Assembly (NCBI RefSeq): GCF_009931435.1 | Contig: NZ_CP043414.1 | Strand: one strand, 5' to 3' | Source: Escherichia coli | GTDB taxonomy: Bacteria > Pseudomonadota > Gammaproteobacteria > Enterobacterales > Enterobacteriaceae | Length of the DNA stretch: 64,000 bases | Position numbers and translations under genes: made by a program | Part shown: piece by piece, positions 1 to 25,576 of the stretch | How positions within the stretch are numbered: the stretch's first letter is position 1 | How the letters are laid out: each line of letters opens with the position of its first letter | The notes under the pieces: model-generated | The model's input: the letters and a program-made list of their open reading frames with translations, nothing else | Databases searched by the model: none | What the model was told of the DNA's origin: nothing

Positions 1-2887
1 CAGAAGGCTGTACCCACCAGTTCACCGGTAATTCACTCACACTGTGTTTTGCACTGTCACGCAGGGGGGCACGGGATGAGGTGCCTTCGCCAAAGGTCAT
101 ATCGTTGTGGCTGCCCAGACGGAAACCGGCACGCACATGTTGTGCACTGCCATGCCCGAACTTCACATAACCGGCGTTGTCCTTACCGTCATCCAGGGAA
201 AGTCCCTGCCAGGTATACTGCAGTTGTGGCTCCAGCATCAGGTTGTCAGTGATACTGAAGGGCAGACCGGTTTCCAGTGAGCCCAGCCAGCCCCAGCCCC
301 GGGCGCGGAAGTCGTTATTGTCCGATGACGCTTTCATGCTGTGGCGGGTTCCCTGTGCCACAATGTCAGCCCACAGGCCGGAGGACGTGTGTGTCAGATT
401 CAGGTATCCGCCCAGGCTGCCGGCATCATCCCGGACCGTGCCGGCACGGGAGCCGTCATCATCCTTAACATCAACGGAAGAATGGCCAGCAGCACCATAT
501 ACCCCCGCGGTCACAGACATACCGGCAACCTCTGTTCTCATCAGGTCACCCTCCAGACGGACGAATCCATAGCTGCCGCTGCTTTCCGGCGTGGCCCCAC
601 GGGCAATACCGCCATTGTTATCGTGACCGAGATGACCGCCCTGAATGCTGAGACGGACGCTGTTGTTTTCACCATTTACACCGGTCTGATGGCTGCGGGA
701 GCCTGCCACAATCCGGTCATAGTCCATTGCCTGTGTCAGCATGGAGGCATACAGGGGGACTTCTGCACGATAAGCATTTTCACTGCGCAGATACCAGCTC
801 TCACCACTGTCCCGGTTGAGGGAGTAGTTAAAGGCACCGGCCTGCAGCCTGTTCCCCTGGACAAAGGCCCCTTCCTCCGTGGTGGCACCGTTAATGGCTT
901 CCACCACCTGAATACCCTTACCGCTGGTCGCCAGCCCCGACGCACTGTTGCCGGCGTTCACCAGGTTCAGGATGGTTTTTCCGGTTGCCCTGCCGCCGTC
1001 AATGACCAGTCTGTCAGCATTGTTCTGTGCCATATCCGGGCGTACACGCAGGCTGATGGTGCCATTCTGTCCGTTCAGGTTTTTCACTTTCAGGGTTGCC
1101 GGTACGAACTTCCCTGTGCGGGTGGAGGTGAAATGAATCTGTCCGGCATGGCTGAGGTCATCCACCACCGACTGCACCGTGGCGTTATCGGGGATATTCC
1201 AGGTGGCACCGGAGGCGAGAGTGACATTCGTGGGGTCAATGGCACCGTTCAGCACAGTGCTGCCGGTCAGCTTCAGGGCTGTACCGCGCTGAGCAATGAC
1301 ATCCGTGGTGACGGTACTGTCGTTCAGCGTCAGCGTGCCTTCATTCAGGTTGACGGCTTTCTGGGTGAGTGTGGTGTTGCTGACAGTGAGTGTGCCACTT
1401 CCTGATTTTTCCACGCTGCCGTTACCGGTGAGAGAGCCTCCCTGCAGGAGTGCATCGCCTTCACGGATGGTCAGGGTATCGTTGTTCACCGTCTTCCCGG
1501 AAAGGGTAAGTATGGCGCCGTTATTCAGCGTGGTGGTGCCCGCCAGTGTGCCGCCCCTGGCGGTGAACAGTCCGCCATTTACCGTGGTATCCGTGGCCGT
1601 ATCACCGGCGTTCAGCGTGAATGAACTGCCTTTTTCCAGCATCAGGGCATCCGCCTGACCGCCTCCGATACTGAATGCCTTTCCGTCGCTCCGGGTACCA
1701 CTGACAGCGGCACCGGAATCGGCCAGCAGTACACCGCCATTTCCCATGGATACGGTGGTGGCGGTACCACCGTTGCGGACATCCAGCGTTCCGCCATCAT
1801 CCACGCGGGTATTAGTGGCTGTGTGTCCGGTCAGCACATCCAGGCGTCCGCCATTTTCCAGTACGACATTATCAGCTTTACCCTCCACAACCGAGAATGC
1901 TCCAAGGCGGTTTATGCCGGTAACGGTTGCAGCCGTACTGGTAACCAGTGCGCCGCCCTGCTTCAGGGTGACATTCGTGGCTGTACCACCGGCGTCCACC
2001 TGCAGTCTGCCCTTCTGATTAACGGTGGTATTCCCGGCCACACCCCCGTTTTTGACAATCTGCCAGCCGTCACTGTTCACAACAGTGTCAGACGCTGTAC
2101 CGCCGTTGTGCACATACTGGTATCCCCCATTCAGCGTGGTATCCAGTGCGTGACCATGTACAGTCTGGTCGCCGCCGGCATAAACCACAGTGGTATTTGC
2201 CGTTCCTTCAGTTCTCACAATCTGGCGACCGTTTTTATTGATGGTTGTGCGTACGGCATCCCCGCGAACAAACTGCCCGGTATCACCGTTTTCTGCATCC
2301 GGTCCCCCTTCCGCCCCGGTATTAACAACGGTATCCGTTGCCACTGTACCGGGCTTGACGACCTGCCAGCCCTTATCATTAATGACGGTTCCTGTGGCTA
2401 TCGCCCCCTCATGCATCCACTGTTCGCCACCATTCAGCGTGGTGTTCACTGCCCGTCCCTGAAGGCTCTGTCCGCCTCCGGCACTGATAACCGTGTCTGA
2501 GACACTTCCACCGGGGTTCACTCTCTGAAGACCACCACTGGTGACAGTCGTTTTGTTGGCTGTTCCGCCATCCTGTACCCATTGCCCGCCGGTATTGGCC
2601 TCGTTATCCGGCCCATACTCCAGCCCGGTACTGATGGTCATTCCGTTGGTCGTACCGAAGACAATCTGGTTGTCATGATTTTCCAGTGTTCCGCCGTTCA
2701 CGGTTTCACCTGCCTGTACAATACTGTCAGCAGCCAGGGCCGGGACTGACGTGACAGCAGCAAGAGACAGAGCAACCGCCACACCGGCGCCTTTTCCCCG
2801 TGAGCGGGCCAGTTCGGAGGCCACCACCAGGGTGCCCGTAATGTGATTCCATACCAGCCTGTAGCTGGTGTTCAGATGTCGTTTCAT
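1..2887 (-). CDS. flu: Antigen 43 (self-associating autotransporter adhesin), 3' end truncated by window edge (about 75 codons missing)
   Basis: Reverse complement from 2887 reads MKRHLNTSYRLVWNH... with long signal peptide and passenger repeats; reverse complement of window start reads ...RAPLRDSAKHSVSELPVNWWVQPS, matching the Ag43 translocator region; the long plus-strand ORFs here are antisense artefacts. Confidence 0.9.
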   Translation of the reverse strand, partial: MKRHLNTSYRLVWNHITGTLVVASELARSRGKGAGVAVALSLAAVTSVPALAADSIVQAGETVNGGTLENHDNQIVFGTTNGMTISTGLEYGPDNEANTGGQWVQDGGTANKTTVTSGGLQRVNPGGSVSDTVISAGGGQSLQGRAVNTTLNGGEQWMHEGAIATGTVINDKGWQVVKPGTVATDTVVNTGAEGGPDAENGDTGQFVRGDAVRTTINKNGRQIVRTEGTANTTVVYAGGDQTVHGHALDTTLNGGYQYVHNGGTASDTVVNSDGWQIVKNGGVAGNTTVNQKGRLQVDAGGTATNVTLKQGGALVTSTAATVTGINRLGAFSVVEGKADNVVLENGGRLDVLTGHTATNTRVDDGGTLDVRNGGTATTVSMGNGGVLLADSGAAVSGTRSDGKAFSIGGGQADALMLEKGSSFTLNAGDTATDTTVNGGLFTARGGTLAGTTTLNNGAILTLSGKTVNNDTLTIREGDALLQGGSLTGNGSVEKSGSGTLTVSNTTLTQKAVNLNEGTLTLNDSTVTTDVIAQRGTALKLTGSTVLNGAIDPTNVTLASGATWNIPDNATVQSVVDDLSHAGQIHFTSTRTGKFVPATLKVKNLNGQNGTISLRVRPDMAQNNADRLVIDGGRATGKTILNLVNAGNSASGLATSGKGIQVVEAINGATTEEGAFVQGNRLQAGAFNYSLNRDSGESWYLRSENAYRAEVPLYASMLTQAMDYDRIVAGSRSHQTGVNGENNSVRLSIQGGHLGHDNNGGIARGATPESSGSYGFVRLEGDLMRTEVAGMSVTAGVYGAAGHSSVDVKDDDGSRAGTVRDDAGSLGGYLNLTHTSSGLWADIVAQGTRHSMKASSDNNDFRARGWGWLGSLETGLPFSITDNLMLEPQLQYTWQGLSLDDGKDNAGYVKFGHGSAQHVRAGFRLGSHNDMTFGEGTSSRAPLRDSAKHSVSELPVNWWVQPS

Positions 2888-3059
2888 CAGCTTTTCCTTA
2901 GATTGAGGGTGAATAAAAAAGCCGGTACCCACAAACGTGGATACCGGCAGGTAAAGGGTTACAGTGCCGGAGGTCCGGCTGTGGGAGTTTCTGAATTGTG
3001 GTTCTGTTGTTCCCTGAATGTCTTTCTGTACGTATCTGTGCATGTTACTGACAAAGGTT

Positions 3060-3120
3060 ATTATTAGCTTATCGATCGATATAAACGATCGATAAAATAG
3101 ATATCGATCGTTTTATTCTA
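3060..3120 (-). promoter_or_regulatory. flu (agn43) phase-variation control region with three clustered GATC (Dam) sites
   Basis: GATC at 3074-3077, 3087-3090 and 3106-3109 within an AT-rich tract about 190-220 nt upstream of the flu start; matches the known Dam/OxyR switch architecture. Confidence 0.7.
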
Positions 3121-3214
3121 TTATTGAGCTATTGCACGGACAAGAGAGACAGTAACGAAAACAGTGCTTTTGTGAGCAGACTCAGAGTCAGGGAGGGCAT
3201 CAGTCACGACAGGT

Positions 3215-4087
3215 TCAGAAGAAAATCCAGTTCCATACCGCACGGGCAACAGAGACCACCGTGTCACGAACAGCGCGCAGGGCCGTACGGACAACAGAGG
3301 CAACACAGACGCTCTCCGCTGTGTCAAATATCCGGTCCACCGCACCGGTAAACTGTTCACGGGCCTGAGAGCGGACAGATTCCGTGCGCAGCTCGTCCTG
3401 CAGTCGGGTCATCAGGGGACTGGCGGCATGGTCGGGAAGCGCTGTCATGAGCGCACTGACCAGCGTATCCAGTTCCCAGCCGGTGCGGGCCGATACGGCC
3501 ACAACCGGATGTACGGGCCGGAACAGACGGAATACCGCCTCCGTTTTTTCGCGAATATTCTGTGCCTGTGCAGGAGAAGGCTGAATACCGGCCATATCCC
3601 ATTCATGGCAGGGCTCCGTTTTGTCGGCCTGCGTCACCACAAACAGTACCCGCTGATGTCCCCGGTGCAGGATGTGTCGCCAGAAATACTCATCCACAGA
3701 CAGGGCACGGTCATCGGCTTTAATCAGCCACAGTACCAGGTCAAGTTCAGGCAGAATGTCACGGTACAGGGCCTCATACTCTGCATCCCTGTCCCGGCTC
3801 TCGCCCACCCCGGGCAGGTCAGTGATAACCATGCTGTGACCGTGGCCACTCAGACGGAAGCGCCGTACTTCCCGGGTGCCGGCGTGAACATCACTGACCG
3901 GGGTGACCTCCCCCTGAAACAGTGCATTACAGAGTGAGGATTTACCGGCCCCGCTTTTACCCATAATGCCAATCACGGGTTCGTGACGGGTGAGTTTGCG
4001 CAGATGTTCCAGGATGTGACGGGAAAGCGAGTAAGGCAGGGAGGAGAGCGGTTTTTCAATTGCCTCAATGGCATCAGACGGATTCAT
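3215..4087 (-). CDS. yeeP: YeeP/YfjP-family prophage GTPase (50S ribosome-binding GTPase-like), apparently full length
   Basis: Translation from internal ATG at 4087 (MNPSDAIEAIEKPL...) with P-loop GIMGKSGAGKSS and DLPG motif; ORF-track start at 4126 is probably an N-terminal over-extension. Confidence 0.8.
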   Translation of the reverse strand: MNPSDAIEAIEKPLSSLPYSLSRHILEHLRKLTRHEPVIGIMGKSGAGKSSLCNALFQGEVTPVSDVHAGTREVRRFRLSGHGHSMVITDLPGVGESRDRDAEYEALYRDILPELDLVLWLIKADDRALSVDEYFWRHILHRGHQRVLFVVTQADKTEPCHEWDMAGIQPSPAQAQNIREKTEAVFRLFRPVHPVVAVSARTGWELDTLVSALMTALPDHAASPLMTRLQDELRTESVRSQAREQFTGAVDRIFDTAESVCVASVVRTALRAVRDTVVSVARAVWNWIFF

Positions 4088-5315
4088 ACATGTATTCCCG
4101 GTGAAAAAAGACAAAACCCCGCGCACCGGAAAGGTGGCGGGGGATTCACGGAGATAATATCTGTCTGAAATTGTTTTTAATCGATGGGATTGTTGCGTAT
4201 TAACATGAAGGAGATCAGGACTTATCCGTTACTGGGTGATCTCCTTCCATGAAAATACGCCGTTATTGTTAAACAGCAGGCTGATTTCTCCGTAAAGGGG
4301 AAAATATTTATCGGCTGCATGATTATCAGGTGTGTCTGTGTTTACTGCTGTGAGTATTTTTCAGTGTATTGTGGGGGAGATGTCAGTGGGAGATATTAAA
4401 TTTACATTTATAATTATCTTACTTCTTCTGTGTGTTTTTTATAAGAGTGCACACGTAATGATATCTGTTGATACCATGTGGTTAAGTGTTTCCCTTCCTG
4501 GTCATGCGTAATGATTAAATGCTTTTGTGACACCATTCTTCCGGTCTGAATATTTATCCCGTTCTTTTTTATTTGTGCAGTGATACTGTCGGAAGAGAAT
4601 TCAGTAATGTGAGGTGTCCTGGTCAGGATAATATCTGCTGAGATATTATTAGTTGAGTGTGTTTTTACTGAGCAAAAGCTGGCTTTTAATTCCTGTACTG
4701 AAACGCTGTTGCTCGTCCGGGGTTAACTGAAACTGGATGATGATGTAAAATGAAGGCTGTTTTTGTGTTTGTCGAAGAAGTGTTATTTTAATCCATTCTC
4801 ATCATTGGCTGGCGATTATACAGAAGTATTTGAAGAAAAAATGGTGCATTTTATCTGCGTCAGCAGGGAGGAAGTATTTTATTGATGTATCAGTATTAAA
4901 TGGTTTTTGTTATTTAGAAATATGTCATCCTGTCCATAGAATATTGTACTCAGCATTCAGTGCAGGAACTGTAGTCTTCTTTATTTTATTCTTCTTCAGG
5001 AGGGGGGATTCCTGAAGGCGTTATTCCCGGTGTTCTGTTTATGATTCATCCCGGCAGGAAACCGGTATCTGCAATACCCGGGATGATGCTTTTTGTTCGT
5101 ACGTGGTTGTGTAAAATTTGAATAGTGGATGTGCTCTGAAGGGAAGGAGGGGACACACAGATTCATTTTGTCTTTCTTCAGCAGCAAAACACACTGTGGT
5201 TATTATTTAACCATTAAATCAACAAAAATTTTTACCTCATATTGATTTGACTGCTATTTTTGCTATTAATAGCCAGAATTGCAGTACTTTTATATCTGTG
5301 TGTAGTGAGGTTACT

Positions 5316-6800
5316 ATGTCATTCGGTCAGCCTTGTGATGAGTTTCCCCTGAGTTCGCTGCCTCCACTCATTCGTGATGCCGTTATTGAAGCTCAGCAAA
5401 TTACGCAGGCTCCCCTTGGGCTTGTGGCAGCGTCTGCCCTGGGCGCTGTTTCACTTGTCTGCCAGAATCTGATTGATGTCTGCAGACTGAATACACTGCG
5501 GGGGCCGGTCTCTCTTTTTTTCCTGACGCTTGCCGAGTCCGGAGAACGAAAAATCGCAGTGGACAAATTATTAATGAAGCCCCTGTATCAGCAGGAGATG
5601 CAGTTATATTCCAGATACAAAAGTGAACTGGCTGTCTGGAAAAACAAGGAAGAGCTTTTAAAGGCTCAGAAAAAAGCATTGTTGTCAAAACTGAATAAAG
5701 AACTCCGCAAAGGAGCGGATGAGTCAGAAACCCTCAGACAACTGGAAGTACTTCAGAAAAACAGTGCGGAAGAACCTGTGAGGTATAAATTCATTTTTAA
5801 TGATGCCACGACTGCGGCAATTAAGAATCAGCTTTGTGGTAAATGGCGTTCAGTGGGTATTATGTCAGATGAAGCCGGTATTATATTTGATGGATATACC
5901 CTGTCTGAGTTGCCATTTATTAACAAAATGTGGGATGGCTCTGTATTGTCTGTGGACAGAAAGAATGAACCCGAACAGATGATTGAAAATGCCAGAATGA
6001 CGTTATCCCTCATGGTGCAACCCGGTCTTTTTGACCGATATATGGAGCGAAAAGGTTCTGTTGCCAGGGACAGTGGTTTTCTTGCCCGTTGTCTTATCAG
6101 TAAACCTGCAACCACGCAGGGGAAACGCTTTATTAACGGAGCTGTGATTCCGGGAGGATCATTAACGGCATTTCATGAACGATTAATGGAACTGGCCAGA
6201 GGCAGTATTGAAAAATCCAGTGAGGATGAACGGTATTGTCTGCATTTTTCGCCTGAAGCGCAAAAAATATTTATTGAGCACTATAATGTTCTGGAGCAGG
6301 ATTTATCTCCCTCCGGTCCGTTAAGTGCGTTTCGGGGACATGTTTCAAAAAAAACAGAAAACATTGCAAGAATTGCAGCGTTATTTCAGTATTTCAGCTA
6401 TGGTGAAGGGAAAATCTCTGCCGATATCATGACGTCTGCTGTCGTAATAAGTTCGTGGTACACAGATGAATATAAAAAATTATTTGCGTTACCTGATGAA
6501 TCTGAACTGCAGCAGAAGGACGCCGAGGAGCTGTTCGACTGGCTCATTGAGGAGTGCCGCGGAGAATGCCCACCCCGTGTCAGGAAAAATTATATTCTCC
6601 AGTGTGGCCCGGGTCGGTTCAGAAACAGGAAAAAACTGAACGCATTGCTGAACATTCTTGAATCTCAGTTCAGGCTTTCTGTCGTGCCGGAAGGAAAAAC
6701 CATGTATGTTCTGCTTCCCCAGATAGCCAGTTTAAAGTTGTCTGATGTCTCTGGTATTTTTACCTCGGGTTATCACTACAATAAGCTGAGAGCGAAGTAA
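5316..6800 (+). CDS. Large island protein, tentatively DUF3987 / YfjI-like (prophage replication-associated protein of unknown function)
   Basis: 494 aa from ATG 5316 preceded by GTGAGG Shine-Dalgarno; motifs recalled from the DUF3987 family (MSDEAG, GSVLSVDRK, LMVQPG, GFLARCL); no P-loop visible; family assignment from memory only. Confidence 0.55.
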   Translation: MSFGQPCDEFPLSSLPPLIRDAVIEAQQITQAPLGLVAASALGAVSLVCQNLIDVCRLNTLRGPVSLFFLTLAESGERKIAVDKLLMKPLYQQEMQLYSRYKSELAVWKNKEELLKAQKKALLSKLNKELRKGADESETLRQLEVLQKNSAEEPVRYKFIFNDATTAAIKNQLCGKWRSVGIMSDEAGIIFDGYTLSELPFINKMWDGSVLSVDRKNEPEQMIENARMTLSLMVQPGLFDRYMERKGSVARDSGFLARCLISKPATTQGKRFINGAVIPGGSLTAFHERLMELARGSIEKSSEDERYCLHFSPEAQKIFIEHYNVLEQDLSPSGPLSAFRGHVSKKTENIARIAALFQYFSYGEGKISADIMTSAVVISSWYTDEYKKLFALPDESELQQKDAEELFDWLIEECRGECPPRVRKNYILQCGPGRFRNRKKLNALLNILESQFRLSVVPEGKTMYVLLPQIASLKLSDVSGIFTSGYHYNKLRAK

Positions 6801-6859
6801 CCGGTGAGCAGTTTTTCTCCATTATGCTTCAGACTTAGATGATTGATTATTATGGGGAT

Positions 6860-6899
6860 TTCATCACCGATATTCAGATGTATGAATATCGGTGATGAA
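6860..6899. repeat. Perfect inverted repeat (17 bp arms, 6 nt loop) between convergent genes; possible bidirectional terminator or protein-binding palindrome
   Basis: ttcatcaccgatattca / gatgta / tgaatatcggtgatgaa read directly; no U-tract on either side. Confidence 0.5.
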
Positions 6900-7121
6900 C
6901 TAAAGCTCAGGAGTTGCGTGGTGGTGATGAATCAACAGGCATATAACTGATACCCGCCGGTCAGAAGTTCCAGCCTGCGACTTTCCTGTCTGCGTGCCCG
7001 CAGTCCGGCGTTCAGGTGCAGCGTGTGACAGAACGCACGGAGAGCGAAACGGCAGGCAGACAGGCTGTTCAGTCAGCCCTGGCACCCTGCCCGGATACCA
7101 GCTTCCCTGAAACAACTGGCA

Positions 7122-7730
7122 TCAGGTGCGCTTATCGTCAACCGTTGTGCGGTATGCCAGGAGCACGTACTGATCCATCAGATCCGTCAGTGCTGCGCTC
7201 TGCTTCTGACGGTTGATGATCCATTCCTCCAGCTCTTTTTCTGATTTCCGTTTCAGATTCTCCGTCCAGTCGTCAAGGCAGTTTCCGGTCATTAAATCAA
7301 GCCAGCAAAGCCAGACCAGTTTGAGGCGCAACTCCGTGCCACCAAACTGACGGAAGAGGCTGATCAGTTTATTTGCCAGCGAACGCTGCCTCAGACGTTC
7401 ACATTCAGACAGGAGAATGCCTTCCAGCATCGGATGATGAACCAGCAGATGTTCACTGGTGCATAAATTCACTATCAGATCATCATCCAGGGGCGGCGTG
7501 GTCCGTTTGTCCGGACCATAAATCAGCCGGTGCAGACTCTGGGGTACGATGGCAATCTCCGGTTTTTCACCATTGAATGACACCCACCCGGGCGTCAGAT
7601 TATGGAAGTAGTAGATATTCGGATGACACACGCCCCAGGATACGGCGTGCCGGGTGAAGCCGGTCAGCCATTTCTGGTAGCTTTCGTGGAGCAGCTCGTA
7701 ACGGGTCTGATACTGTGGTTTCATTTTCAT
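7122..7730 (-). CDS. Hypothetical protein (202 aa) downstream of alpA on the same strand
   Basis: ORF 7122..7871; internal ATG at 7730 (MKMKPQYQ...) has a GAGGAA Shine-Dalgarno 6 nt upstream; no family recognised. Confidence 0.5.
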   Translation of the reverse strand: MKMKPQYQTRYELLHESYQKWLTGFTRHAVSWGVCHPNIYYFHNLTPGWVSFNGEKPEIAIVPQSLHRLIYGPDKRTTPPLDDDLIVNLCTSEHLLVHHPMLEGILLSECERLRQRSLANKLISLFRQFGGTELRLKLVWLCWLDLMTGNCLDDWTENLKRKSEKELEEWIINRQKQSAALTDLMDQYVLLAYRTTVDDKRT

Positions 7731-7810
7731 ATTCCTCACGGGAGATAACAGGCAGCAGAACGCCGCCGGCAGGCCGGAGACTGCGTCTGCTGCAGATGAA
7801 CGGTTAAGAA

Positions 7811-8017
7811 TTACGGACGGGACTGTGCAATACGCGCCTGCAGCCAGGCTTCCACTTCGCTTTTCAGCCATCGGGAGCTGCGGCCCATTTTGATGGGCGC
7901 AGGAAAGTCACCATCCTTGATGAGTTTGTAAAACCACTTATCGGTCAGGCCGGTCAGTTGAGTGATAAATGCCATGTCGACCATCTGGTCATCCATCAGT
8001 GAAACTGGGGTGATCAT
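7811..8017 (-). CDS. alpA: AlpA-family prophage transcriptional regulator (MerR-like HTH)
   Basis: MITPVSLMDDQMVDMAFITQLTGLTDKWFYKLIKDG...RWLKSEVEAWL pattern typical of the AlpA family; ATG 8017 preceded by GAGGAA. Confidence 0.75.
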   Translation of the reverse strand: MITPVSLMDDQMVDMAFITQLTGLTDKWFYKLIKDGDFPAPIKMGRSSRWLKSEVEAWLQARIAQSRP

Positions 8018-8563
8018 GAGAATGTTCCTCCGGATGTTGTTAAACCAGCCGGTGTGGTCATGAAAACAACGCACCACCTTCACCGGCATAACAACCGGGG
8101 AGAAACGTAAAAAATAATCGGGAATGTGACCGCCAGGAGATAAACGGGGAGGTTACGGTGGCTGAGCCGTACCGGTATGCCGGGTGGTTGTTACGAAACG
8201 ATGCTTCCGCACGCGCGCGCGATAAAGAAGGGATGATTTTCGTGAGGAAGAGGGGAAAACTGGCGTTCTGATAATTGCAGAGTTATTTACGGGGCGGTTA
8301 CGATGGGGCAGACCGTGTCCGGTGGGCAGGCGACAGGTATCACCGATGGGATAAGACTGTCTGATTGGTATTATAAATATATAAGAGAGATCAAACACAT
8401 GAGATCAAATACATGAGTTCATATATGTGAAATAAACACGGTGAGTGTGATCAGTGGGCATGATGAGAACGCAGTAGCAACAGACTGCGCTATCCCTGAT
8501 AGCTGGCGTATAACCTGCGTATATAAAACGTACCAGCAACGCACGTGAACAGAGTGCATTAAG

Positions 8564-8579
8564 CATCCGTCGTTGACAC
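8564..8579. repeat. 16 nt identical to the IS100 right terminal repeat (catccgtcgttgacac); solo IS21-family end remnant
   Basis: Exact match to 25513-25528 plus flanking c of the IS100 copy in this window. Confidence 0.5.
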
Positions 8580-9329
8580 CGACCTGGTGAGTGACAGTCT
8601 GAGAGACCGGTTAAGTGGTGGTACGGGAGTAATGAGTTTGGGGTGGGTACCAGAATGCCAGTCTGGCGGTATGCTGACAGTATCACGTTAATTGCAGCAT
8701 AAAGTGATGAGAGGCTAATGGAAGTTAAAACCAGAGCAGTTCCGTCGTTGTTCATCCCGGGAGACGCTGGAAAAAGTGATTTCCCACACGCGTTATAAGC
8801 TTACTCCAGCGGAGATGGAAGCCTTCAACTCTGCGGTCGATCACCGACTGGCAGAACTGACAATGAACAAGCTTTACGATCGTGTTCCCGCTTCAGTCTG
8901 GAAATATGTCATCTGAGCGTTCGGTAATCACAACTGCATCGCGCCAGGTGTTATCCGCTTTGTGATTCTTATTGGCTCTTCTCAGGTTATTAAAAGCTGA
9001 ATATGTTCCTGTTGTCGGGAACCAGGATAATACCGGGAGCGTTAAGCGGTATAGCGACAACAAAGAATTCGAAATCAAAAGGGAATGGTGCCGGAGGCGT
9101 GGGCGGTAATAGGCTGATTTTCAGGTATTACCGGCTTACAACGTGTGGTTGATATTGAGGGGCTGTGAGTTTCGCGTATTTGTCAGAAACCCAGATGAGT
9201 TTTCCTGTATGGGACGAAATAAGGCAGCGGCAATACCTGGAAAATTTAATATGGTATGAAGGAGAACCTGTCGGTTACGCTTAATATACACGGTACACTG
9301 TCAGCTCAGGGGATACATGAACCGTTATC

Positions 9330-9539
9330 TCACCAGCTACACAGTATACACACACTGACGCTGACAGTAGTCAGCAGGACCACAATAATCAGCGCCAGCA
9401 GTATGGTAACGATACGGTCTGTATTCCGGTAGTAGCCGAAGGGGTCGACAGAACCACAATACGGGCAACACACTGTATTATTAGTAATCGCGTTTCCACA
9501 GTCCCTGCACTTCTTTTGCGTATCACCATAACTCCCTCC
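9330..9539 (-). pseudogene. Small zinc-ribbon plus transmembrane-helix protein, apparently frameshifted
   Basis: ATG at 9529 with strong GAGGAGGGAG Shine-Dalgarno opens a 46-codon frame; the -1 frame encodes CRDCGNAITNNTVCCPYCGS followed by a hydrophobic helix (IVTILLALIIVVLLTTVSVSV) but lacks a start codon. Confidence 0.4.
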
Positions 9540-9727
9540 TCACAGCCTTACCCGTAACCGGTTTTTTACATTAAAAAACAACGCTGAAAATTCAACCGTC
9601 AGTCCGGAGACGACCGTTCGGGTTATCACAGAGTGCCTGAGACAGTGTCCTGCCGGAGGTCACTTCAGGGACTCTGCGCATTTTTTACGACGTGGCTATT
9701 CCGTATGAACCATACGGAGATTTAACC

Positions 9728-10297
9728 ATGACCTACAAATACAACCCCTTCTGGCAGCAACGTATTCGTGAGACGGTGCGGCACGCACTGAATGTTCATC
9801 CCCGCCTGACGGCATTGCGGGTTGACCTGCGTCTCCCGGATGTACCGGCAGCAACGGACGCAGCTGTGATATCCCGCTTCATCAATGCCCTGAAAGCCCG
9901 AATCGACGCTTACCAGAAACGTAAGCATCGGGAAGGTAAACGCGTGCATCCCACCACCCTGCATTACGTCTGGGCCCGGGAGTTTGGGGAGTTCAAAGGT
10001 AAAAAACACTATCACCTGATGCTGCTGGTCAACCGGGATACCTGGTGTCGTGCCGGTGATTACCGCGCTCCGGAGTCTCTGGCCGGGATGATTAAACAGG
10101 CGTGGTGCAGTGCCCTGGGAGTGGATGTCGGGTGCCATGCCACGCTGGTGCATTTTCCGGCCTGGCCGGCGGTGTGGCTGGCGCGTAATGATGACACCGG
10201 CTTTCAGCAGGTGCTGGAACGTGCTAACTATCTGGCGAAGGAGCATACCAAAGCTCACTGCACCGGTGAGCGCAACTTTGGCTGCAGTCGTGGCTGA
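9728..10297 (+). CDS. HUH-type rolling-circle Rep-like protein (YagK/YfjJ / inovirus gp2-like family)
   Basis: HUH motif KKHYHLML and YxxK motif (NYLAKE) near the C-terminus; ATG 9728 with GGAG Shine-Dalgarno embedded in an 8 bp palindrome (9700-9718). Confidence 0.65.
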   Translation: MTYKYNPFWQQRIRETVRHALNVHPRLTALRVDLRLPDVPAATDAAVISRFINALKARIDAYQKRKHREGKRVHPTTLHYVWAREFGEFKGKKHYHLMLLVNRDTWCRAGDYRAPESLAGMIKQAWCSALGVDVGCHATLVHFPAWPAVWLARNDDTGFQQVLERANYLAKEHTKAHCTGERNFGCSRG

Positions 10298-10462
10298 GCC
10301 AGACAGACGAGTTATCTGACTTCAGTGTGATGACGTGTTCACGGCCACCACACTGATTTTCCCTTATGAGACTGAACTGAAACCGCCATTCACACCTGAC
10401 CACGCTGCCCGTACCGGGACGGCTGTTGCCTGCGTGTCGTCTGACGGTAAGGAACATATACT

Positions 10463-10855
10463 ATGTACGCAAAATCCTTTCTCGCTCTTGATGGCAACGG
10501 ACGTCTGACGGGCGCCCGTACAGCACAGGCCGCACCTTATGCTCACTACACCTGCCACTTGTGTGGCAGTGCACTCAGATACCATCCGCAATACGACACT
10601 GAACTTCCCTGGTTTGAACACACTGACGACAGGCTGACAGAGCACGGTCAACAGTGCCCTTATGTCAGGCCGGAGCGCAGAGAAATACAGTTGATTAAAC
10701 GTCTGCAGCAATTCGTACCGGATGCCTTACCCGTGGTGCGTAAAGCCAGCTGGCACTGCAGACAATGTCACCACGATTATTATGGGGAGCGGTACTGCAC
10801 ACACTGCCAGACCGGAGGTTTCAGTCTTCCCCGGACAGCTCAGCAACTGTCTTGA
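10463..10855 (+). CDS. Uncharacterised zinc-ribbon protein (paralog 1), CxxC pairs and PWFEH motif
   Basis: 130 aa; CHLC ... PWFEH ... CRQC-x10-CTHC; AAGGAA Shine-Dalgarno upstream; paralogous to 12019..12423. Confidence 0.6.
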   Translation: MYAKSFLALDGNGRLTGARTAQAAPYAHYTCHLCGSALRYHPQYDTELPWFEHTDDRLTEHGQQCPYVRPERREIQLIKRLQQFVPDALPVVRKASWHCRQCHHDYYGERYCTHCQTGGFSLPRTAQQLS

Positions 10856-10864
10856 ACGTAAAAA

Positions 10865-11833
<969 letters not shown>

Positions 11834-12005
11834 GATTACCCATCCTTGCAAATGCGTTATGGCGTACTGACAACTGTTCGGGTTTCAGATGAGTGGCTCA
11901 GTGTATGCGCCATTCGCTGAGCTACGGGCTATGAACCCCTTGAGGGATCGGGCTGCATACACCTTGCCAAATCTAATCACAGTTATTTTAACCAATTGTC
12001 AAGAT
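11834..12005 (-). ncRNA. Candidate IS110-family bridge-RNA region (structured 5' non-coding arm); hypothesis only
   Basis: 8 bp stem (11901-11908 with 11955-11962) enclosing a smaller hairpin; TTGACA hexamer on the minus strand at 12002..11997; analogy to IS621-type elements. Confidence 0.25.
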
Positions 12006-12018
12006 ACAAGGAGGAGAT

Positions 12019-12423
12019 ATGCGAATTCTGAACTGCTATATGGCGAATGACAGCAAAGGCCATTTTGTTACGGCGAAAGAAGCCGCGAAGAACAACCGAC
12101 AGGACGTTTTGTGCTGTGTGTCCTGTGGTTGTCCGTTAACACTTAAGCGGGGCAATGACGGACAACCGCCGTGGTTTGAACATGACCAGATGACTGTTGC
12201 TGCGAAAATCCTGCTGCGATGCACCTGGCTTGACCCGGCAGAGAAAGAGGCCCGTCGTTTGCATCTGCAGGGCATGACGGTTCCGGATTATACGGTGAAG
12301 GTGAGAAAGTGGTTTTGTGTGATGTGTGACGAAGATTATGAGGGGGAAAAGTGCTGCCCGCGTTGTGGTACCGGGGTATACAGCAGGGATAGGGGGGCTG
12401 CAGGAGGGCAACTGGAAGGATAG
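12019..12423 (+). CDS. Uncharacterised zinc-ribbon protein (paralog 2)
   Basis: 134 aa; CCVSCGC ... PPWFEH ... CVMC-x9-CCPRC; strong AGGAGGA Shine-Dalgarno; same architecture as 10463..10855. Confidence 0.6.
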   Translation: MRILNCYMANDSKGHFVTAKEAAKNNRQDVLCCVSCGCPLTLKRGNDGQPPWFEHDQMTVAAKILLRCTWLDPAEKEARRLHLQGMTVPDYTVKVRKWFCVMCDEDYEGEKCCPRCGTGVYSRDRGAAGGQLEG

Positions 12424-12617
12424 GAACTGAGCGGTTCAGTCGCGGAAATCAGTTGCAGAGCTGTAATGATATCTCCGGGAGTGCTGCGTTGGTAGGGGCA
12501 TCCCGGGATAGAGAAATTTTAGCACTTTGCCCTGAATGATTGTAGACGTCCCGAGTACTCGTACCGGCCTGAGTTATTACAGTTAGATATTCGCTTTTTC
12601 TCCCGCATACTTCACAG

Positions 12618-12639
12618 CTGTCAACGACGGATGAAAAGT
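12618..12639. repeat. 22 nt identical to the IS100 right terminal repeat (tgtcaacgacggatgaaaagtg), opposite orientation to the 8564 copy
   Basis: Exact match to the reverse complement of 25507-25528; the following sequence is not IS100 interior. Confidence 0.55.
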
Positions 12640-12713
12640 GGTTCTTCCGCAACTTGGGTGGAAGAAAATGGATGAAACTTTCTGGTGAACAAAGATCTAA
12701 GCTGATTTAAGTT

Positions 12714-13375
12714 ATGGGCAACGCAATGCACTCTCTTAAGACACTTTTAAAGTTACCTTGCGGATGGCGATGCAGTCGACAAATTATTAGCTCTGACGGT
12801 ATAACCCTCCATCTCCACGGAAAACGCAAAACAGCACAATGTCCTGAATGCTTTAAGCGTAGCGACTCTGTTCATAGTTGTCGTCGGCGCCGGATACAGC
12901 ATCTACCCTGCTCAGGGCAGACGCTATGGCTTGTATTTTCCGTCCGCCACTGGTACTGCCGTAACCCGGCTTGTTCACGTAAAATTTTTGCCGAGTCGCT
13001 TGCTCCCTTCGCCAGTTCACACCAGCAGTCTTCACAGGCGTTACAAAATTAACAACGTCAACTGGGATTAATAGCTGGAGGTGAGGCTGGAAAACGGGCT
13101 GCAACGGCAGCGGGTCTCCGTTGCAGTGCTGATACTCTTCTTCGCAGGCTTATCAATACCCCGGAGACGAAACAGTCAGGCGCGCCTCATGTCGGTATTG
13201 ATGAGTGGGCGTGGCATTGGGGCCACCGTTACGGTACGTTAATATTCAATCTTGATACTCACCGCCCCCTGGTCCTGCTTCCCGGCCGTGATCAGCGTAC
13301 GCTGGCGACCTGGTTCAGAAAAGGTCCGGAAATACAGGTTGTATCGCGTGATCGCAGTGGAGTCTATGCGACAGC
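12714..13375 (+). pseudogene. ISL3-family transposase remnant (zf-ISL3 N-terminus, frameshifted, 3' end cut by IS600)
   Basis: N-terminal CPEC...HLPCSGQ...RHWYCRNPACSRKIFAESL pattern; downstream frames encode GIDEWAWHWGHRYGTLIFNL and VSRDRSGVYATAE in shifted frames. Confidence 0.6.
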
Positions 13376-13648
13376 TGAGGTAGCCTGAGTTTAACGGACA
13401 CTCCTTCCTGAAATAGAATGGCATCAGAAGGAGCTAATAATGAGCAGAAAAACCCAACGTTACTCTAAAGAGTTCAAAGCCGAAGCTGTCAGAACGGTTC
13501 TTGAAAATCAACTTTCGATCAGTGAAGGCGCTTCCCGATTATCTCTTCCTGAAGGCACTTTAGGACAATGGGTTACCGCCGCCAGAAAAGGGCTCGGTAC
13601 TCCTGGTTCCCGCACGGTGGCTGAACTGGAATCTGAAATTCTGCAACT
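13376..13648 (+). mobile_element. IS600 5' fragment (left inverted repeat plus first about 69 codons of orfA), truncated by IS30
   Basis: Starts TGAGGTAGCCTGAGTTTAACGG...; orfA MSRKTQRYSKEFKAEAVRTVLENQLSISEGASRL... breaks at the IS30 end. Confidence 0.8.
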
Positions 13649-14869
13649 TGTAGATTCAATCTGTCAATGCAACACCCCTTTCAATTATCTCTTTCGGTGT
13701 TTTGAACTTCAGTGTCTTTCTCGGTCTGTTGTTTAGCTGAGCAGCAACCAGATCTAGTTCATGTTGAGTATATTGGGCAAGACATGTCTTTTTAGGAAAG
13801 TACTGCCGAATTAGCCCATTTGTGTTCTCATTTGTTCCCCGCTGCCAAGGACTCTGAGGATCGCAGAAGTAAACTTTAACGCCGGTGCTGACAGTAAATT
13901 CTAGATGTCTGGCCAGTTCCATTCCTCTGTCCCATGTCAGTGATTTTCTGAGTTCTGACGGTAAACTCAGGAATTTGTCGGTAAGAGCCTGATTTACTGA
14001 GACAGAATCTTTGCCCCTGAGTCTGAGGATGATCGTATAACGTGATTTTCGGTCTACAAGTGTGGCTATATGAGAGTTTTTTGTACCTGAGACTAAATCG
14101 CCCTCCCAATGCCCCAGAGAGCGTCTGTTATCGATATTTCGGGAACGTTCGTGAATTGGTGTTCCGTTCACTATGTTAATCGTACCTCTTTCGCCTTTGC
14201 GGGTATGACGCCTGCCATGGCGAAGGCTATGCGACCGTCGCAGATGCTGTATATTCAGGTGGTGTAGCGCTTCACGGCTACGAAAGTACAGCGTTTTATA
14301 AATTGTCTCAGGTGATATTCGCAGCGTTTTTTGACGTGGTTTTGTTCGCCTTAACCATCCTGATATTTGCTCTGGAGACCATTTCATCTCCAGCTTTTCC
14401 AGAACAAGCTTTCGCAATGGCAAATTTTGATCCAGTAAGCACGGTTTTGGCCTTTTCGCCATTCTGTTGGCTCGGTTATTAGCATCAACAGCTTTGTAAT
14501 AGCGTCTGCCCCGATTACGCTGAACTTCACGTGAGATCGTCGAAGGACTGCGATTCAGCGCAGTAGCTATCGCACGAATGCTCATTTTGGCTGACAAACC
14601 AGCTCGTATCTCCTCGCGCTCAGACAGTGTCAGGTGAGCTACAGCCCGCTTACGCTCATGGGGTTTTATGCCGCCAGTATCCCTTAACATAGTGAAGATC
14701 GTTCCGGGTTTTGAACCCAGGATATTCGCTATTTCACTGAAGCCTGTTCCGTTCTTCCATAGTTCAAAAACAGAGGCTTTTTCCTCTGCTGTAAATGTTC
14801 GTCTCATTCAAAAAACCTCCGCAACCCCATGTTTTCACATAACTGTTGCGTTGACCAATTGAATCTACA
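13649..14869 (-). mobile_element. IS30, complete (1221 bp) with terminal inverted repeats
   Basis: Ends tgtagattcaatctgtcaatgcaaca (13649-) and ctgttgcgttgaccaattgaatctaca (-14869); length equals canonical IS30. Confidence 0.9.
13656..14807 (-). CDS. insI: IS30 transposase (383 aa)
   Basis: MRRTFTAEEKASVFELWKNGTGFSEIANILGSKPGTIFTML... recalled IS30 transposase. Confidence 0.9.
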   Translation of the reverse strand: MRRTFTAEEKASVFELWKNGTGFSEIANILGSKPGTIFTMLRDTGGIKPHERKRAVAHLTLSEREEIRAGLSAKMSIRAIATALNRSPSTISREVQRNRGRRYYKAVDANNRANRMAKRPKPCLLDQNLPLRKLVLEKLEMKWSPEQISGWLRRTKPRQKTLRISPETIYKTLYFRSREALHHLNIQHLRRSHSLRHGRRHTRKGERGTINIVNGTPIHERSRNIDNRRSLGHWEGDLVSGTKNSHIATLVDRKSRYTIILRLRGKDSVSVNQALTDKFLSLPSELRKSLTWDRGMELARHLEFTVSTGVKVYFCDPQSPWQRGTNENTNGLIRQYFPKKTCLAQYTQHELDLVAAQLNNRPRKTLKFKTPKEIIERGVALTD

Positions 14870-15183
14870 GCGGCTTTTTTTAATATGTCCCGTTCGTCGG
14901 TAACCCGTTTCAGCTCTTTCTGGAGACGGCGGATCTCGGCCGGAGCATCTGACTGTTCTTTATTAGTGGAAGAATCCGGACCGTACTTCTTTATCCAGGC
15001 ATAAAGGCTGTGGGTGGTGATATCGAGACGTGTTGCAACGCTGGCAACAGAATAACCGCGATCAACAACCTGTTTGACTGCTTCAGTTTTAAACTCTTCG
15101 GGATAACGCTTACCGCTCATGGGCACTTCTCTTTAAGCCATCTTAAATGACTCTGAGGTGTCTGTTAAACCCGTGGCGATTCA
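14870..15183 (-). mobile_element. IS3-family element 5' fragment (terminal repeat plus orfA N-terminal 85 codons), truncated by IS30; specific IS not assigned
   Basis: orfA MSGKRYPEEFKTEAVKQVVDRGYSVASVATRL...ERDILKKAA ends at the IS30 junction; terminus (reverse complement) tgaatcgccacggg resembles IS3-group ends. Confidence 0.7.
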
Positions 15184-16172
15184 GTACAAAACACAACAAT
15201 AGCTTCATGATATATAAATACGTGATGACGAGTGGTACTCCGCATGGTTATTTAACTTCTCAGCACCACTAATGATCCTGAGCAACTTCGTATTTGGGCC
15301 ATTGCCATGGAGTAGAAAGCTGTGTCTGAGAATGCAGAATTTGAGAAAAGAATTAGCTTTCTTGGAGAGCTTCTGAAAATGGCACGCTAACAACGTTTTG
15401 TTAAAAAATGTGAATCACTTGCCGGGGCTGCATTTTCTATTCGAGGAGAATGTTGACGTAGATATTACAGAAATCTCAGCGCATCAGGATAAACTGCTAC
15501 CTTAGGTCAACCACCAAAAGAAAATACAATACGTCCAGTTTGTATGCCTTTAATAACACATCTTCTAAATGTTGAAGAATTATCCCGCCTGCTGAAGAAC
15601 GTTGCTCTGAGTGTGATAAACCTTTTTATTCTTGATGATGTCAGCGAGAAGATGGAATATATCCCCGACTGGGTCGTGGTTACCCGGTTAAACATCTGGT
15701 GGCGCTAATAAATCTGGCAGGTCACATTCTGTTGAATGCTGTGACAGTGCCTTACCGAGAGAGCGAAATTGTGGTGTTCTAGTGCATAGTCGCCACCATT
15801 CCGGATAATTCTATTGCGTTGTTTTACAAGTTCTTTTACAGCGCAGATCTGTCGCTGACGTTGAATCAATAGCCTGGATTTCAGAACACAATGCCTGTTT
15901 GCTGGTTGGTCCGGCAGTAGCATTAATTCATTATCTGAATGAAATGTGTCAATCCACAGAAACCGCTGTCAATGACGCATTTTGTCGGACGTTAACACGA
16001 GAAAGTTTGGCTATTCCGTAATGCCATCTTATTTCGTAATGGATTGAGAATGCTGGATTTTTAATTATATTACGCGCAGTATTAATCGCGTAAATGTTTT
16101 GCGGTCAGCAACGGTGGGGGATCCATTGTTCTGTTCAATGAATACCATCATACATTTGAATCAGGAGTCGGT

Positions 16173-16718
16173 ATGATGATTTTGGTGACGGGGGGCGCAC
16201 GGAGCGGGAAGAGTCGCCACGCAGAGGTGCTTATTGGGGACTCTTCACAGGTTCTGTATATCGCTACCTCGCAAATCCTTGATGATGAGATGGCTGCACG
16301 GATAGAACATCATCGGCAAGGCCGCCCGGAGCACTGGCGCACAGTGGAGCGCTGGCAACATCTTGATGAATTAATTCATGCAGACATTAACCCGAATGAG
16401 GTTGTGTTGCTGGAATGCGTTACCACAATGGTGACTAATCTGTTGTTTGATTATGGCGGCGATAAAGACCCTGATGAATGGGATTATCAGGCGATGGAAC
16501 AGGCGATTAATGCTGAGATTCAGTCGTTGATTGCTGCCTGCCAACGTTGCCCCGCAAAGGTTGTATTAGTGACTAACGAAGTGGGAATGGGGATTGTGCC
16601 GGAGAGTCGTCTGGCACGACATTTTCGTGATATTGCCGGGCGGGTAAATCAGCAGTTGGCCGCTGCGGCAAATGAAGTATGGCTGGTGGTTTCTGGTATT
16701 GGAGTAAAAATCAAATGA
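16173..16718 (+). CDS. cobU: Adenosylcobinamide kinase / adenosylcobinamide-phosphate guanylyltransferase
   Basis: 181 aa, [18 protein letters not shown]... P-loop. Confidence 0.95.
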
Positions 16719-17458
16719 GTAAATTATTTTGGGCGATGCTCTCATTTATTACGCGTCTGCCTGTACCGCGTCGCTGGTCCCAGGGACTGGATTTCGAGCA
16801 TTATTCTCGCGGTATTATTACTTTTCCTTTGATTGGATTATTGCTTGGCGCGATTAGCGGGCTGGTCTTCATGGTGCTGCAGGCATGGTGTGGCGCACCA
16901 CTGGCGGCACTGTTTAGCGTACTTGTGCTGGTGCTGATGACCGGGGGATTCCATCTGGACGGCCTCGCTGATACCTGTGATGGCGTATTTTCTGCACGTA
17001 GCCGCGATCGCATGTTGGAAATCATGCGTGATAGCCGTTTAGGCACCCACGGCGGTCTGGCATTGATTTTTGTGGTACTGGCAAAGATTCTGGTGTTAAG
17101 CGAGTTGGCTCTGCGTGGCGAATCGATCCTTGCATCGCTGGCGGCAGCATGTGCGGTCAGCCGCGGGACTGCCGCATTATTGATGTATCGTCATCGTTAT
17201 GCGCGGGAAGAAGGGCTTGGCAATGTGTTCATTGGCAAAATTGATGGGCGACAAACCTGCGTCACACTCGGCTTAGCCGCTATTTTTGCTGCCGTATTAT
17301 TGCCGGGTATGCATGGTGTGGCTGCTATGGTGGTGACGATGGTGGCGATTTTCATCCTCGGTCAGCTTCTCAAACGTACGCTGGGCGGGCAAACGGGCGA
17401 TACGCTGGGAGCAGCCATAGAGCTTGGTGAACTGGTCTTCCTGCTGGCACTGCTATAA
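16715..17458 (+). CDS. cobS: Cobalamin (5'-phosphate) synthase
   Basis: 247 aa from [18 protein letters not shown]..., ATGA overlap with cobU stop. Confidence 0.95.
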
Positions 17459-17469
17459 AGAGACGTGAC

Positions 17470-18549
17470 ATGCAAATACTTGCCGATTTACTGAATACGA
17501 TCCCAGCCATCGATTCTGCCGCTATGTCGCGTGCACAACGGCATATTGACGGGTTACTCAAACCTGTTGGTAGCCTGGGAAAGCTGGAGGCGCTTGCCAT
17601 ACAACTGGCAGGAATGCCGGGGTTGAATGGCATACCGCATGTGGGCAAAAAAGCGGTACTGGTTATGTGTGCCGATCACGGCGTCTGGGAGGAAGGGGTC
17701 GCTATTTCTCCAAAAGAAGTGACAGCCATACAGGCTGAAAATATGACCCGTGGAACAACCGGCGTGTGTGTGCTGGCAGAACAAGCGGGCGCTAACGTCC
17801 ACGTAATTGATGTTGGTATTGATACTGCTGAGCCTATCCCCGGGCTTATCAACATGCGTGTCGCACGAGGTAGCGGCAATATTGCTTCAGCTCCGGCAAT
17901 GAGTCGCCGTCAGGCTGAAAAGTTGCTTTTGGACGTCATATGTTATACGCAGGAGCTGGCAAAAAACGGTGTCACGCTGTTTGGTGTAGGTGAACTGGGG
18001 ATGGCAAACACGACACCGGCAGCAGCAATAGTCAGCACAATCACTGGCCGGGATCCTGAAGAAGTGGTTGGGATTGGCGCAAACCTGCCGACAGATAAAC
18101 TGGCTAATAAAATTGATGTTGTGCGTCGGGCGATTACGTTGAATCAACCAAATCCTCAGGATGGTATTGATGTCCTGGCAAAAGTGGGTGGATTTGATTT
18201 GGTCGGAATAGCTGGAGTGATGTTAGGTGCTGCTTCCTGCGGTTTACCCGTGTTGCTGGATGGATTTCTTTCTTATGCTGCTGCGCTCGCAGCCTGCCAG
18301 ATGTCTCCTGCAATCAAACCGTATCTCATTCCTTCTCACTTGTCGGCAGAAAAAGGCGCGCGTATAGCGCTCTCGCATTTGGGGCTGGAGCCTTATCTCA
18401 ATATGGATATGCGTTTAGGTGAGGGGAGTGGTGCAGCTCTGGCGATGCCCATCATCGAAGCTGCTTGTGCGATATACAACAACATGGGCGAACTTGCTGC
18501 CAGTAATATTGTTCTACCGGGGAATACGACTTCTGATTTGAACTGCTAA
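17470..18549 (+). CDS. cobT: Nicotinate-nucleotide--dimethylbenzimidazole phosphoribosyltransferase
   Basis: 359 aa. Confidence 0.95.
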
Positions 18550-18613
18550 AAACGAAAAGTCTGATAAAAGCTATACTTATCGGATAGTATTCGCGACTTA
18601 GGAAAGGGACATG

Positions 18614-19546
18614 ATGCGTCGTGTAAATATTCTTTGCTCATTTGCTCTGCTTTTTGCCAGCCAAAATAGCCTGGCGGTAACTTATCCATTACCTCCAGAG
18701 GGTAGCCGTTTAGTGGGGCAGTCGCTTACTGTAACTGTTCCTGATCACAATACTCAGCCGCTGGAGACTTTTGCCGCACAATACGGGCAAGGGTTAAGTA
18801 ATATGCTGGAAGCGAATCCGGGCGCTGATGTTTTTTTGCCGAAGCCTGGCTCACAACTCACCATTCCGCAGCAACTGATTTTGCCCGCCACTGTTCGTAA
18901 AGGGATTGTGGTTAACGTCGCTGAAATGCGTCTTTATTACTATCCGCCAGACAGTAACACAGTGGAAGTCTTTCCTATTGGTATCGGCCAGGCTGGGCGA
19001 GAAACCCCGCGTAACTGGGTGACTACCGTTGAACGTAAACAAGAAGCACCAACCTGGACGCCAACGCCGAACACCCGGCGCGAATATGCGAAACGAGGGG
19101 AGAGTTTGCCCGCATTTGTTCCTGCGGGGCCCGATAACCCCATGGGGCTGTACGCGATTTATATTGGCAGGTTGTATGCCATCCACGGTACCAATGCCAA
19201 TTTTGGTATTGGGCTCCGGGTAAGTCAGGGCTGTATTCGTCTGCGCAATGACGATATCAAATATCTGTTTGATAATGTTCCTGTAGGCACTCGTGTACAA
19301 ATTATTGATCAGCCAGTGAAATACACAACGGAACCGGATGGTTCAAAGTGGCTGGAAGTTCATGAGCCGCTGTCGCGCAATCGTGCAGAATATGAGTCTG
19401 ACCGAAAAGTGCCATTGCCGGTAACCCCATCTTTGCGGGCGTTTATCAACGGGCAAGAAGTTGATGTAAATCGCGCAAATGCTGCGTTGCAACGTCGATC
19501 GGGAATGCCTGTGCAAATTAGTTCTGGTTCAAGACAGATGTTTTAA
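18614..19546 (+). CDS. ldtA: L,D-transpeptidase LdtA (ErfK)
   Basis: [16 protein letters not shown]... signal peptide, YkuD domain with SQGCIRL active-site motif. Confidence 0.9.
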
Positions 19547-19569
19547 GAGCGTTGGTAATTAGAAAGTAA

Positions 19570-19598
19570 AAAGCCTGCTCGAAAGCAGGCTTTTTTTG
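19570..19598 (+). terminator. Rho-independent terminator after ldtA
   Basis: gcctgct-cgaaa-agcaggc hairpin followed by T7 run. Confidence 0.8.
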
Positions 19599-19602
19599 AA
19601 TT

Positions 19603-19678
19603 TGGCTCCTCTGACTGGACTCGAACCAGTGACATACGGATTAACAGTCCGCCGTTCTACCGACTGAACTACAGAGGA
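19603..19678 (-). tRNA. asnV: tRNA-Asn (GUU)
   Basis: Exact 76 nt tRNA-Asn sequence, reverse complement. Confidence 0.95.
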
Positions 19679-20004
19679 ATCGTGTGAACGGGGCGCATAT
19701 TAATGGCAGTGCATGGTGATGTCAAAGGGTGAAATGTATTTTTTTGTTTGTTTGCTGCCAATTTCAACAAAGTGGTGAGCTTTCAATCTTATTGTGTAAT
19801 GAACCATCGTGGTGCATACCCTCCTTTTATAGGGCAGGTGAATGCGACTGCTGATAAAAAGGGCCAATGACGAATCTATCATAATCTTTTATTTGACAGT
19901 TGGTTAGCTTGCGCATCAACGCCAAAATAGAACTGGCAAGCATCTTGCTTTCTGGTTGTAAGTAATGGCGGCACTTGGGCCGATTCTTAAAAACCGGAGG
20001 CAAC

Positions 20005-23313: not shown

Positions 23314-25576
<2,263 letters not shown>

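Follow-up and report, generated by a model that had tools for sequence, protein, structure and literature searches.

How did a complete IS30 come to lie between fragments of two different IS3-family elements beside the cobU gene of Escherichia coli? In the window analysed here, a stretch of 64,000 nucleotides from an E. coli chromosome (assembly GCF_009931435.1, contig NZ_CP043414.1), cobU adjoins a pile of four nested or abutting insertion sequences with this IS30 in its middle. The pile occupies the cobU-proximal end of a CP4-44-type island, in which agn43 is followed by the genes for a GTPase, YfjI, Hha and a Gp2-family protein and by zinc-ribbon genes, and then by the IS pile, an IS4 remnant and cobUST. 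As such it is an ordinary IS scar: its elements are all familiar insertion sequences of E. coli, present at close to 100% identity, and RefSeq genomes already show the arrangement as annotated pseudogenes, with close parallels to be found in K-12. Mildly notable is the consistency with which IS30 targets the same orfA position across different IS3-family elements.

The pieces of the pile

Boundaries were drawn by aligning the window with BLAST to reference copies that came from other genomes, namely a complete 1264-bp IS600, IS30D of K-12 and an intact 1229-bp ISX, and the ISL3, IS3 and IS30 pieces were assigned to their families with NCBIfam profiles. The pile opens with the 5' remnant of an ISL3-family element on the plus strand (12619..13375; about 757 of some 1766 bp), which comprises a terminal repeat (12619-12660) and a transposase pseudogene that starts at 12714 and carries an in-frame stop at 13050-13052. 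The profile for ISL3-type transposases, NF033550, matches its N-terminal 112 aa (E 5.5e-19), scoring below the whole-protein cut-off because the window holds a fragment. The remnant is collinear with a 1.77-kb element in strain S1-CAM-01-C, bounded by 43-nt inverted repeats; this 43-nt terminal repeat accompanies the ISL3-family element at another locus too. Homology to the full S1-CAM-01-C element ends at 13375, where the left end of IS600 cuts the remnant (13375/13376). A preliminary description of the locus had already placed this end correctly, while the start it gave, 12714, is that of the start codon only, the terminal repeat beginning at about 12619.

The IS600 piece (13376..13648, plus strand) corresponds to nt 1-273 of the element, with 100% identity to the annotated 1264-bp copy, and consists of the left inverted repeat and orfA codons 1-69, orfA starting at 13440 and stopping after codon 69; a complete IS600, by comparison, has orfA, a programmed frameshift and orfB. 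The piece is followed by the complete, 1221-bp IS30 (13649..14869, minus strand; IRR at 13649, IRL at 14869), which aligns with IS30D of K-12 over 1221/1221 bp with 3 mismatches (99.75% identity). Its transposase ORF is intact (383 aa, 13656-14807, minus strand) and matches profile NF033563 with an E value of 3e-82 and 276 bits against a cut-off of 80. Beyond IS30, nt 314-1 of the 1229-bp IS3-family element ISX (14870..15183, minus strand) are 98.1% identical to nt 1-314 of the intact copy and comprise the left repeat and orfA codons 1-83, with the ATG at 15120. The element has TGAATCGCCACGG termini and, in the intact reference copy, a programmed frameshift. The same fragment is annotated in MG1655 as 'insertion sequence:ISX' with the pseudogene insX, and the identical OrfA bears the UniRef name 'ISEhe3 transposase A'; E. 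coli B is listed as carrying incomplete ISEhe3 copies (PMC7881107).

No significant similarity links IS600 and ISX at the nucleotide level, and the identity between their OrfA proteins is 37.5%, so the fragments flanking IS30 derive from two different elements. IS30 is flanked by CT on the left (13647-13648) and GC on the right (14870-14871), without a 2-bp target duplication; thus, the window copy, while still an IS30, is not a simple insertion. In all of this the preliminary description is borne out, down to the base for the boundaries of IS600, IS30 and the inverted IS3-family orfA piece. It had named two observations that would speak against its reading, identical 2-bp duplications at IS30 and flanking fragments belonging to one element; both were looked for and neither occurs. 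None of the four elements has another copy in the window, the sole other match being a 22-bp repeat in common with the IS100-like element. Nor is the structure an assembly artefact, since the exact joint between IS600 nt 273 and IS30 recurs in 34 complete genomes. Of the four elements, IS30 alone has survived intact and could still transpose; the pieces of IS600, ISX and ISL3 are dead.

Some further mobile elements of the window deserve mention in their own right. The outer 22-23 nt of the 43-nt terminal repeats of the ISL3-family element are IS100/IS21-type ends: TGTCAACGACGGATGAAAAGTG, from the repeat at 12619-12660, is 22/22 identical to the IS100-like right end at 25507-25528, and the other terminal arm resembles the IS100 left end. 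In the S1-CAM-01-C locus these repeats lie at 2387-2429 and 4110-4152, and the IS100-type outer bases accompany the ISL3 element elsewhere too (about 7007-7028 of the MS1718 locus). The IS100-like end belongs to a second nested IS pile (23575-25528), in which a 1954-bp IS21-family IS100-like element, encoding IstA (340 aa) and IstB (260 aa), sits in an IS1 that interrupts yeeO; this copy is missing in strain ZH48, which is otherwise nearly identical. An IS110-family element (10844-12008), labelled by PGAP as 'IS110 family RNA-guided transposase', lies between two zinc-ribbon genes as a pseudogene with an internal stop and is absent from strains STEC383 and S1-CAM-01-C.

The intact island and the missing segment

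A synthetic query, in which a complete ISX was joined to the window's right flank, was used to search for the intact site and recovered strains with a complete ISX at this very site. In S1-CAM-01-C, the zinc-ribbon genes are followed by a full-length ISL3 pseudogene, a ggt fragment, the genes for a phosphotriesterase-related protein, a DMT transporter, a glutamine amidotransferase and a PfkB kinase, an IS66 fragment, ISEc48, a lyase-family gene, an intact ISX on the minus strand, the IS4 remnant and cobU. STEC383 shows the same island with an IS30 within ISX; both strains thus retain the full island, with the complete ISL3 element, five cargo genes, the IS66 fragment, ISEc48 and the complete ISX. 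These islands show that the ancestral island resembled that of S1-CAM-01-C and that its ISL3 element was already a pseudogene. Being only about 97% identical to the window, the intact-island strains are to be regarded as cousins, not ancestors. In the lineage of the window, the ISL3 transposase gene is interrupted by IS600 at its nt 662.

Aligned with the S1-CAM-01-C locus, within which the full ISL3 element lies, window positions 12009-13375 correspond to 1781-3144 and 14870-20000 to 12916-18060. The intervening 9,771 bp (locus 3145-12915), which span from the ISL3/IS600 point to ISX nt 315, are absent from the window and have IS600 nt 1-273 and IS30 in their place. The loss of intervening cargo, suspected in the preliminary description, is thereby confirmed. 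That description had left the choice between a deletion and an inversion; both outer flanks of the window are collinear with the intact islands and ISX has the same orientation, so a deletion it is and an inversion is not needed.

A separate observation concerns the joint between the left end of ISX and the chromosome (15183/15184), where relatives hold extra DNA. The S1-CAM-01-C locus keeps 15 bp (13230-13244) and the STEC383 locus 653 bp (14453-15105) at the left end of ISX that are absent from the window, and this joint is therefore also a deletion end. The DNA at the other end of ISX differs as well between STEC383 and S1-CAM-01-C. The nested retention of 0, 15 and 653 bp, together with the differing other end, suggests that there have been ISX-anchored adjacent deletions too.

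A recurrent IS30 target and two forms of the left joint

Where in its host elements does IS30 insert? A copy was counted as a simple insertion if it had a 2-bp duplication and the rest of the host element on its other side. Such insertions are found in both orientations at nt 326-327 of IS600 (AC duplication; MS1718 and ETEC L3_E36) and at nt 313-314 of ISX (GC duplication; MB51 and STEC383), and once more in K-12 at nt 334-335 of IS911A (AC duplication). All of these sites (326-327 in IS600, 313-314 in ISX and about 335 in IS911) represent the same orfA position, at the codons I-L-K-K-A, ATATTAAAAAAAGCnnC, and the target in all three elements is the middle base of the codon that follows K-K-A. 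As both orientations occur in IS600 and in ISX, with IS911 in addition, there have been at least five independent IS30 hits. Three IS30 loci of K-12 lie at this position: IS30A in IS911A, IS30B beside ISX, and IS30D between IS911B and IS600. By visual comparison only, the hot spot and the LHS site of lambda have in common a run of A followed by a G/C core.

Repeated use, by which we define a hot spot, was found for the right joint of the window, between IS30-IRL and ISX nt 314 (14869/14870); the left joint, at IS600 nt 273, lies outside it. The left joint of other strains is placed differently. Strain 23CRST007 has, at this very locus, the exact architecture of the window except that its IS600 extends to nt 327, and the same 327 form, accompanied by an IS2, is present in TUM18780 and ST167-like strains; the 54 bp absent from the window at 13648/13649 are thus IS600 nt 274-327. 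Strict junction searches (E 1e-15) found the joint between IS600 nt 273 and IS30 in 34 genomes, always chromosomal and in one place each, and that between IS600 nt 327 and IS30-IRR in 851 genomes, including O104:H4 and O157:H7 strains (in O157:H7 at 98.3% identity). The counts are taken from these strict searches; 60- and 120-bp junction queries at E 1e-5 were confounded, 30-bp half matches being merged into one place. On these numbers, 34 against 851 genomes, the junction of the window is read as the later one: the 273 joint is probably a 54-bp trim of the 327 form, and the break at nt 273 is thus probably not the original joint. The ancestral left joint, at IS600 nt 327, was also at the hot spot. 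The lost segment reaches exactly up to the outermost base of an IS30 that is itself intact, and inspection of the window sequence revealed no microhomology at the 273 joint, which is the look expected of an adjacent deletion made by the transposase. Less in keeping with a second IS30 event, the site at nt 273 resembles the core of the hot spot only loosely (GCAACTGCGTA compared to GCAACAGCGTA, the joint being displaced by 1 nt).

Slippage between two GCAAC repeats of IS600 was considered as a cause of the 54-bp loss and rejected, as it predicts GCAACTGTAG where the window reads GCAACTTGTAG. The history of the locus, which roughly 194 genomes carry, has not followed a simple tree: all four combinations of the 273 or 327 joint with IS2 present or absent exist, and two SNPs within IS30 (13824 and 13887) assort independently of both markers, so that recombination, gene conversion or recurrence must have played a part. 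The IS2 of some relatives, 1331 bp with a 5-bp duplication, lies at a position equivalent to about 15224.

Two candidates for earlier stages were also set aside. In strain 11899A, IS600 nt 576-959 follow IS30, as would be seen in a pre-deletion intermediate, but the two are separated by 17 bp of ISX (nt 314-298); the arrangement is a derivative of the 327 form by further rearrangement. The IS30 of this strain (within locus 8204-9554) has an internal tandem overlap, with nt 890-1020 present twice. Matches that suggested ISL3 beside a complete IS600 proved to be pieces that are not collinear (MS1718) and have a different junction. On plasmid pMRE162 (locus 2361-2499), an ISX copy with an internal deletion carries just 139 bp of the IRR end of IS30 at nt 313. 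The pMRE162 and 11899A arrangements are further decay products of hot-spot joints.

How far the recurrence may be generalized is a matter for caution. A somewhat doubtful extension, which we offer tentatively, is that IS30 systematically homes to a short sequence conserved in orfA of several unrelated IS3-family elements, the I-L-K-K-A codons of IS600, ISX/ISEhe3 and IS911. Copies of IS3-family elements would then be landing sites for IS30, which would inactivate them and start deletions from one such copy to the next, and in the 54-bp step the IS30 end might have moved, repeatably and over a short distance, to a weaker version of the core. The occurrence of IS30 at the same orfA position explains why IS30 is so often found inside piles of IS3-family fragments.

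Origin of the deletion and its known counterparts

Which route led from the intact island to the present pile? The passages of PMC9333248 that deal with the matter describe a reactive IR-IR junction by which IS30 brings about deletions, inversions and fusions, a preference of the element for nearly palindromic hot spots, and the intramolecular targeting of such hot spots. Along these lines, IS30 would first have occupied one of the two hot spots, in IS600 or in ISX, and its reactive end would then have attacked the other within that molecule. About 11 kb would have been lost in this step, made up of what remained of IS600 and of ISL3, the cargo, and ISX nt 315-1229. The product would be IS600(1-327)-IS30-ISX(314-1), the form of 23CRST007 and the ST167-like strains. 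In the sub-lineage of the window, a second deletion anchored at the IS30 end may then have removed IS600 nt 274-327, yielding the 273 joint. The order of events given here is a reconstruction, as none of the genomes in the collection retains the state just before the deletion, with a complete IS600 in ISL3 and the cargo present. The account as a whole, an intramolecular hot-spot deletion by IS30 of about 11 kb followed by a 54-bp trim at the IS30 end, has in our judgement an even chance of being correct.

The preliminary description rightly saw the rearrangement as centred on IS30. Its term 'IS30-mediated', however, is an interpretation, as the action of the IS30 transposase and homologous recombination between two IS30 copies give an identical product. 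Two copies in the same orientation, at nt 326-327 of IS600 and nt 313-314 of ISX, could have recombined in a RecA-dependent manner, deleting the DNA between them and leaving one IS30 with hybrid flanks. The parental types for such an exchange do exist, with target duplications and in the required orientations (IS600::IS30 in ETEC L3_E36, ISX::IS30 in MB51), an ISX::IS30 is present at the cobU locus itself in STEC383, in the opposite orientation, and the independence of the IS30 SNPs from the flanking markers suggests exchange among IS30 copies. We nonetheless consider this route, the main rival, less likely: it takes three events where the preferred account takes two, none of the genomes in the collection searched has both IS30 copies flanking the cargo at this place, and the later loss of 54 bp, ending exactly at the tip of IS30, is left unexplained.

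An improbable alternative makes the 273 joint a primary event, in which IS30 inserted independently at a CT target (nt 272-273) and produced its own deletion to ISX nt 314. This would agree with the exactness of the joint at the IS30 end, with the partial repetition of the hot-spot core near nt 273, and with the four combinations of the 273/327 and IS2 markers. It would however require the same IS30 orientation and the same ISX endpoint to have arisen twice at one locus, while apart from the 54 bp the window differs from the 327-form strains by only a few SNPs over the locus as compared, and the 273 joint occurs nowhere else, being confined to one place in each of its 34 genomes. Finally, an IS30-mediated inversion, in which the orientation of ISX would result from a flipped intervening segment, can draw on the two IS3-family fragments facing each other and on the ability of IS30 to invert DNA, as described in the relevant part of PMC9333248, but it is exceedingly improbable, as ISX is already on the minus strand in the intact islands of STEC383 and S1-CAM-01-C with collinear outer flanks, and the window contains neither a second IS30 nor a reciprocal joint, ZH48 likewise having a single place that matches a 3.5-kb query.

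In a modest way, the locus adds a well-documented natural case to the record: IS30 occupies one and the same orfA position in three IS3-family elements, and between two of these it marks a deletion. For the lineages that carry this island, ST167-like NDM strains among them, clean structural markers are available in the two left joints (273 and 327), the insertion of IS2 and the loss of 9.8 kb.

The closest known systems are one set of experiments and two loci of K-12. The IS30 pathways, as far as they are set out in the pertinent sections of PMC9333248, include a documented route by which one IS30 produces a deletion at a preferred target, with the element intact and without a duplication; that work is experimental, performed with plasmids and K-12 chromosomal insertions, and the IS3-family orfA site is not discussed in those sections. 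At the CP4-6 locus of K-12, the IS30B remnant and ISX (insI2/insX; NC_000913.3 279931-280425) present the same 5' fragment of ISX, cut at the same nucleotide and abutting an IS30 end, which however is the IRR end instead of the IRL end seen in the window, and the IS30 is truncated by IS1B. Closer in overall structure is the IS911B-IS30D-IS600 array of KpLE2 (insO/insI3/insM; NC_000913.3 4507125-4509801). It differs in its chromosomal site, in having IS911 and not ISX as the partner, in the orientation of IS30 relative to IS600, and in the length of the IS600 fragment, which is 327 bp compared to the 273 bp of the window. Like the window, though, it lacks a matching 2-bp duplication; about 120 bp of IS911 are missing, and here too a complete IS30 lies between the facing 5' fragments of two IS3-family elements, which extend to nt 327 of IS600 and nt 334 of IS911 and thus to the same orfA hot spot.
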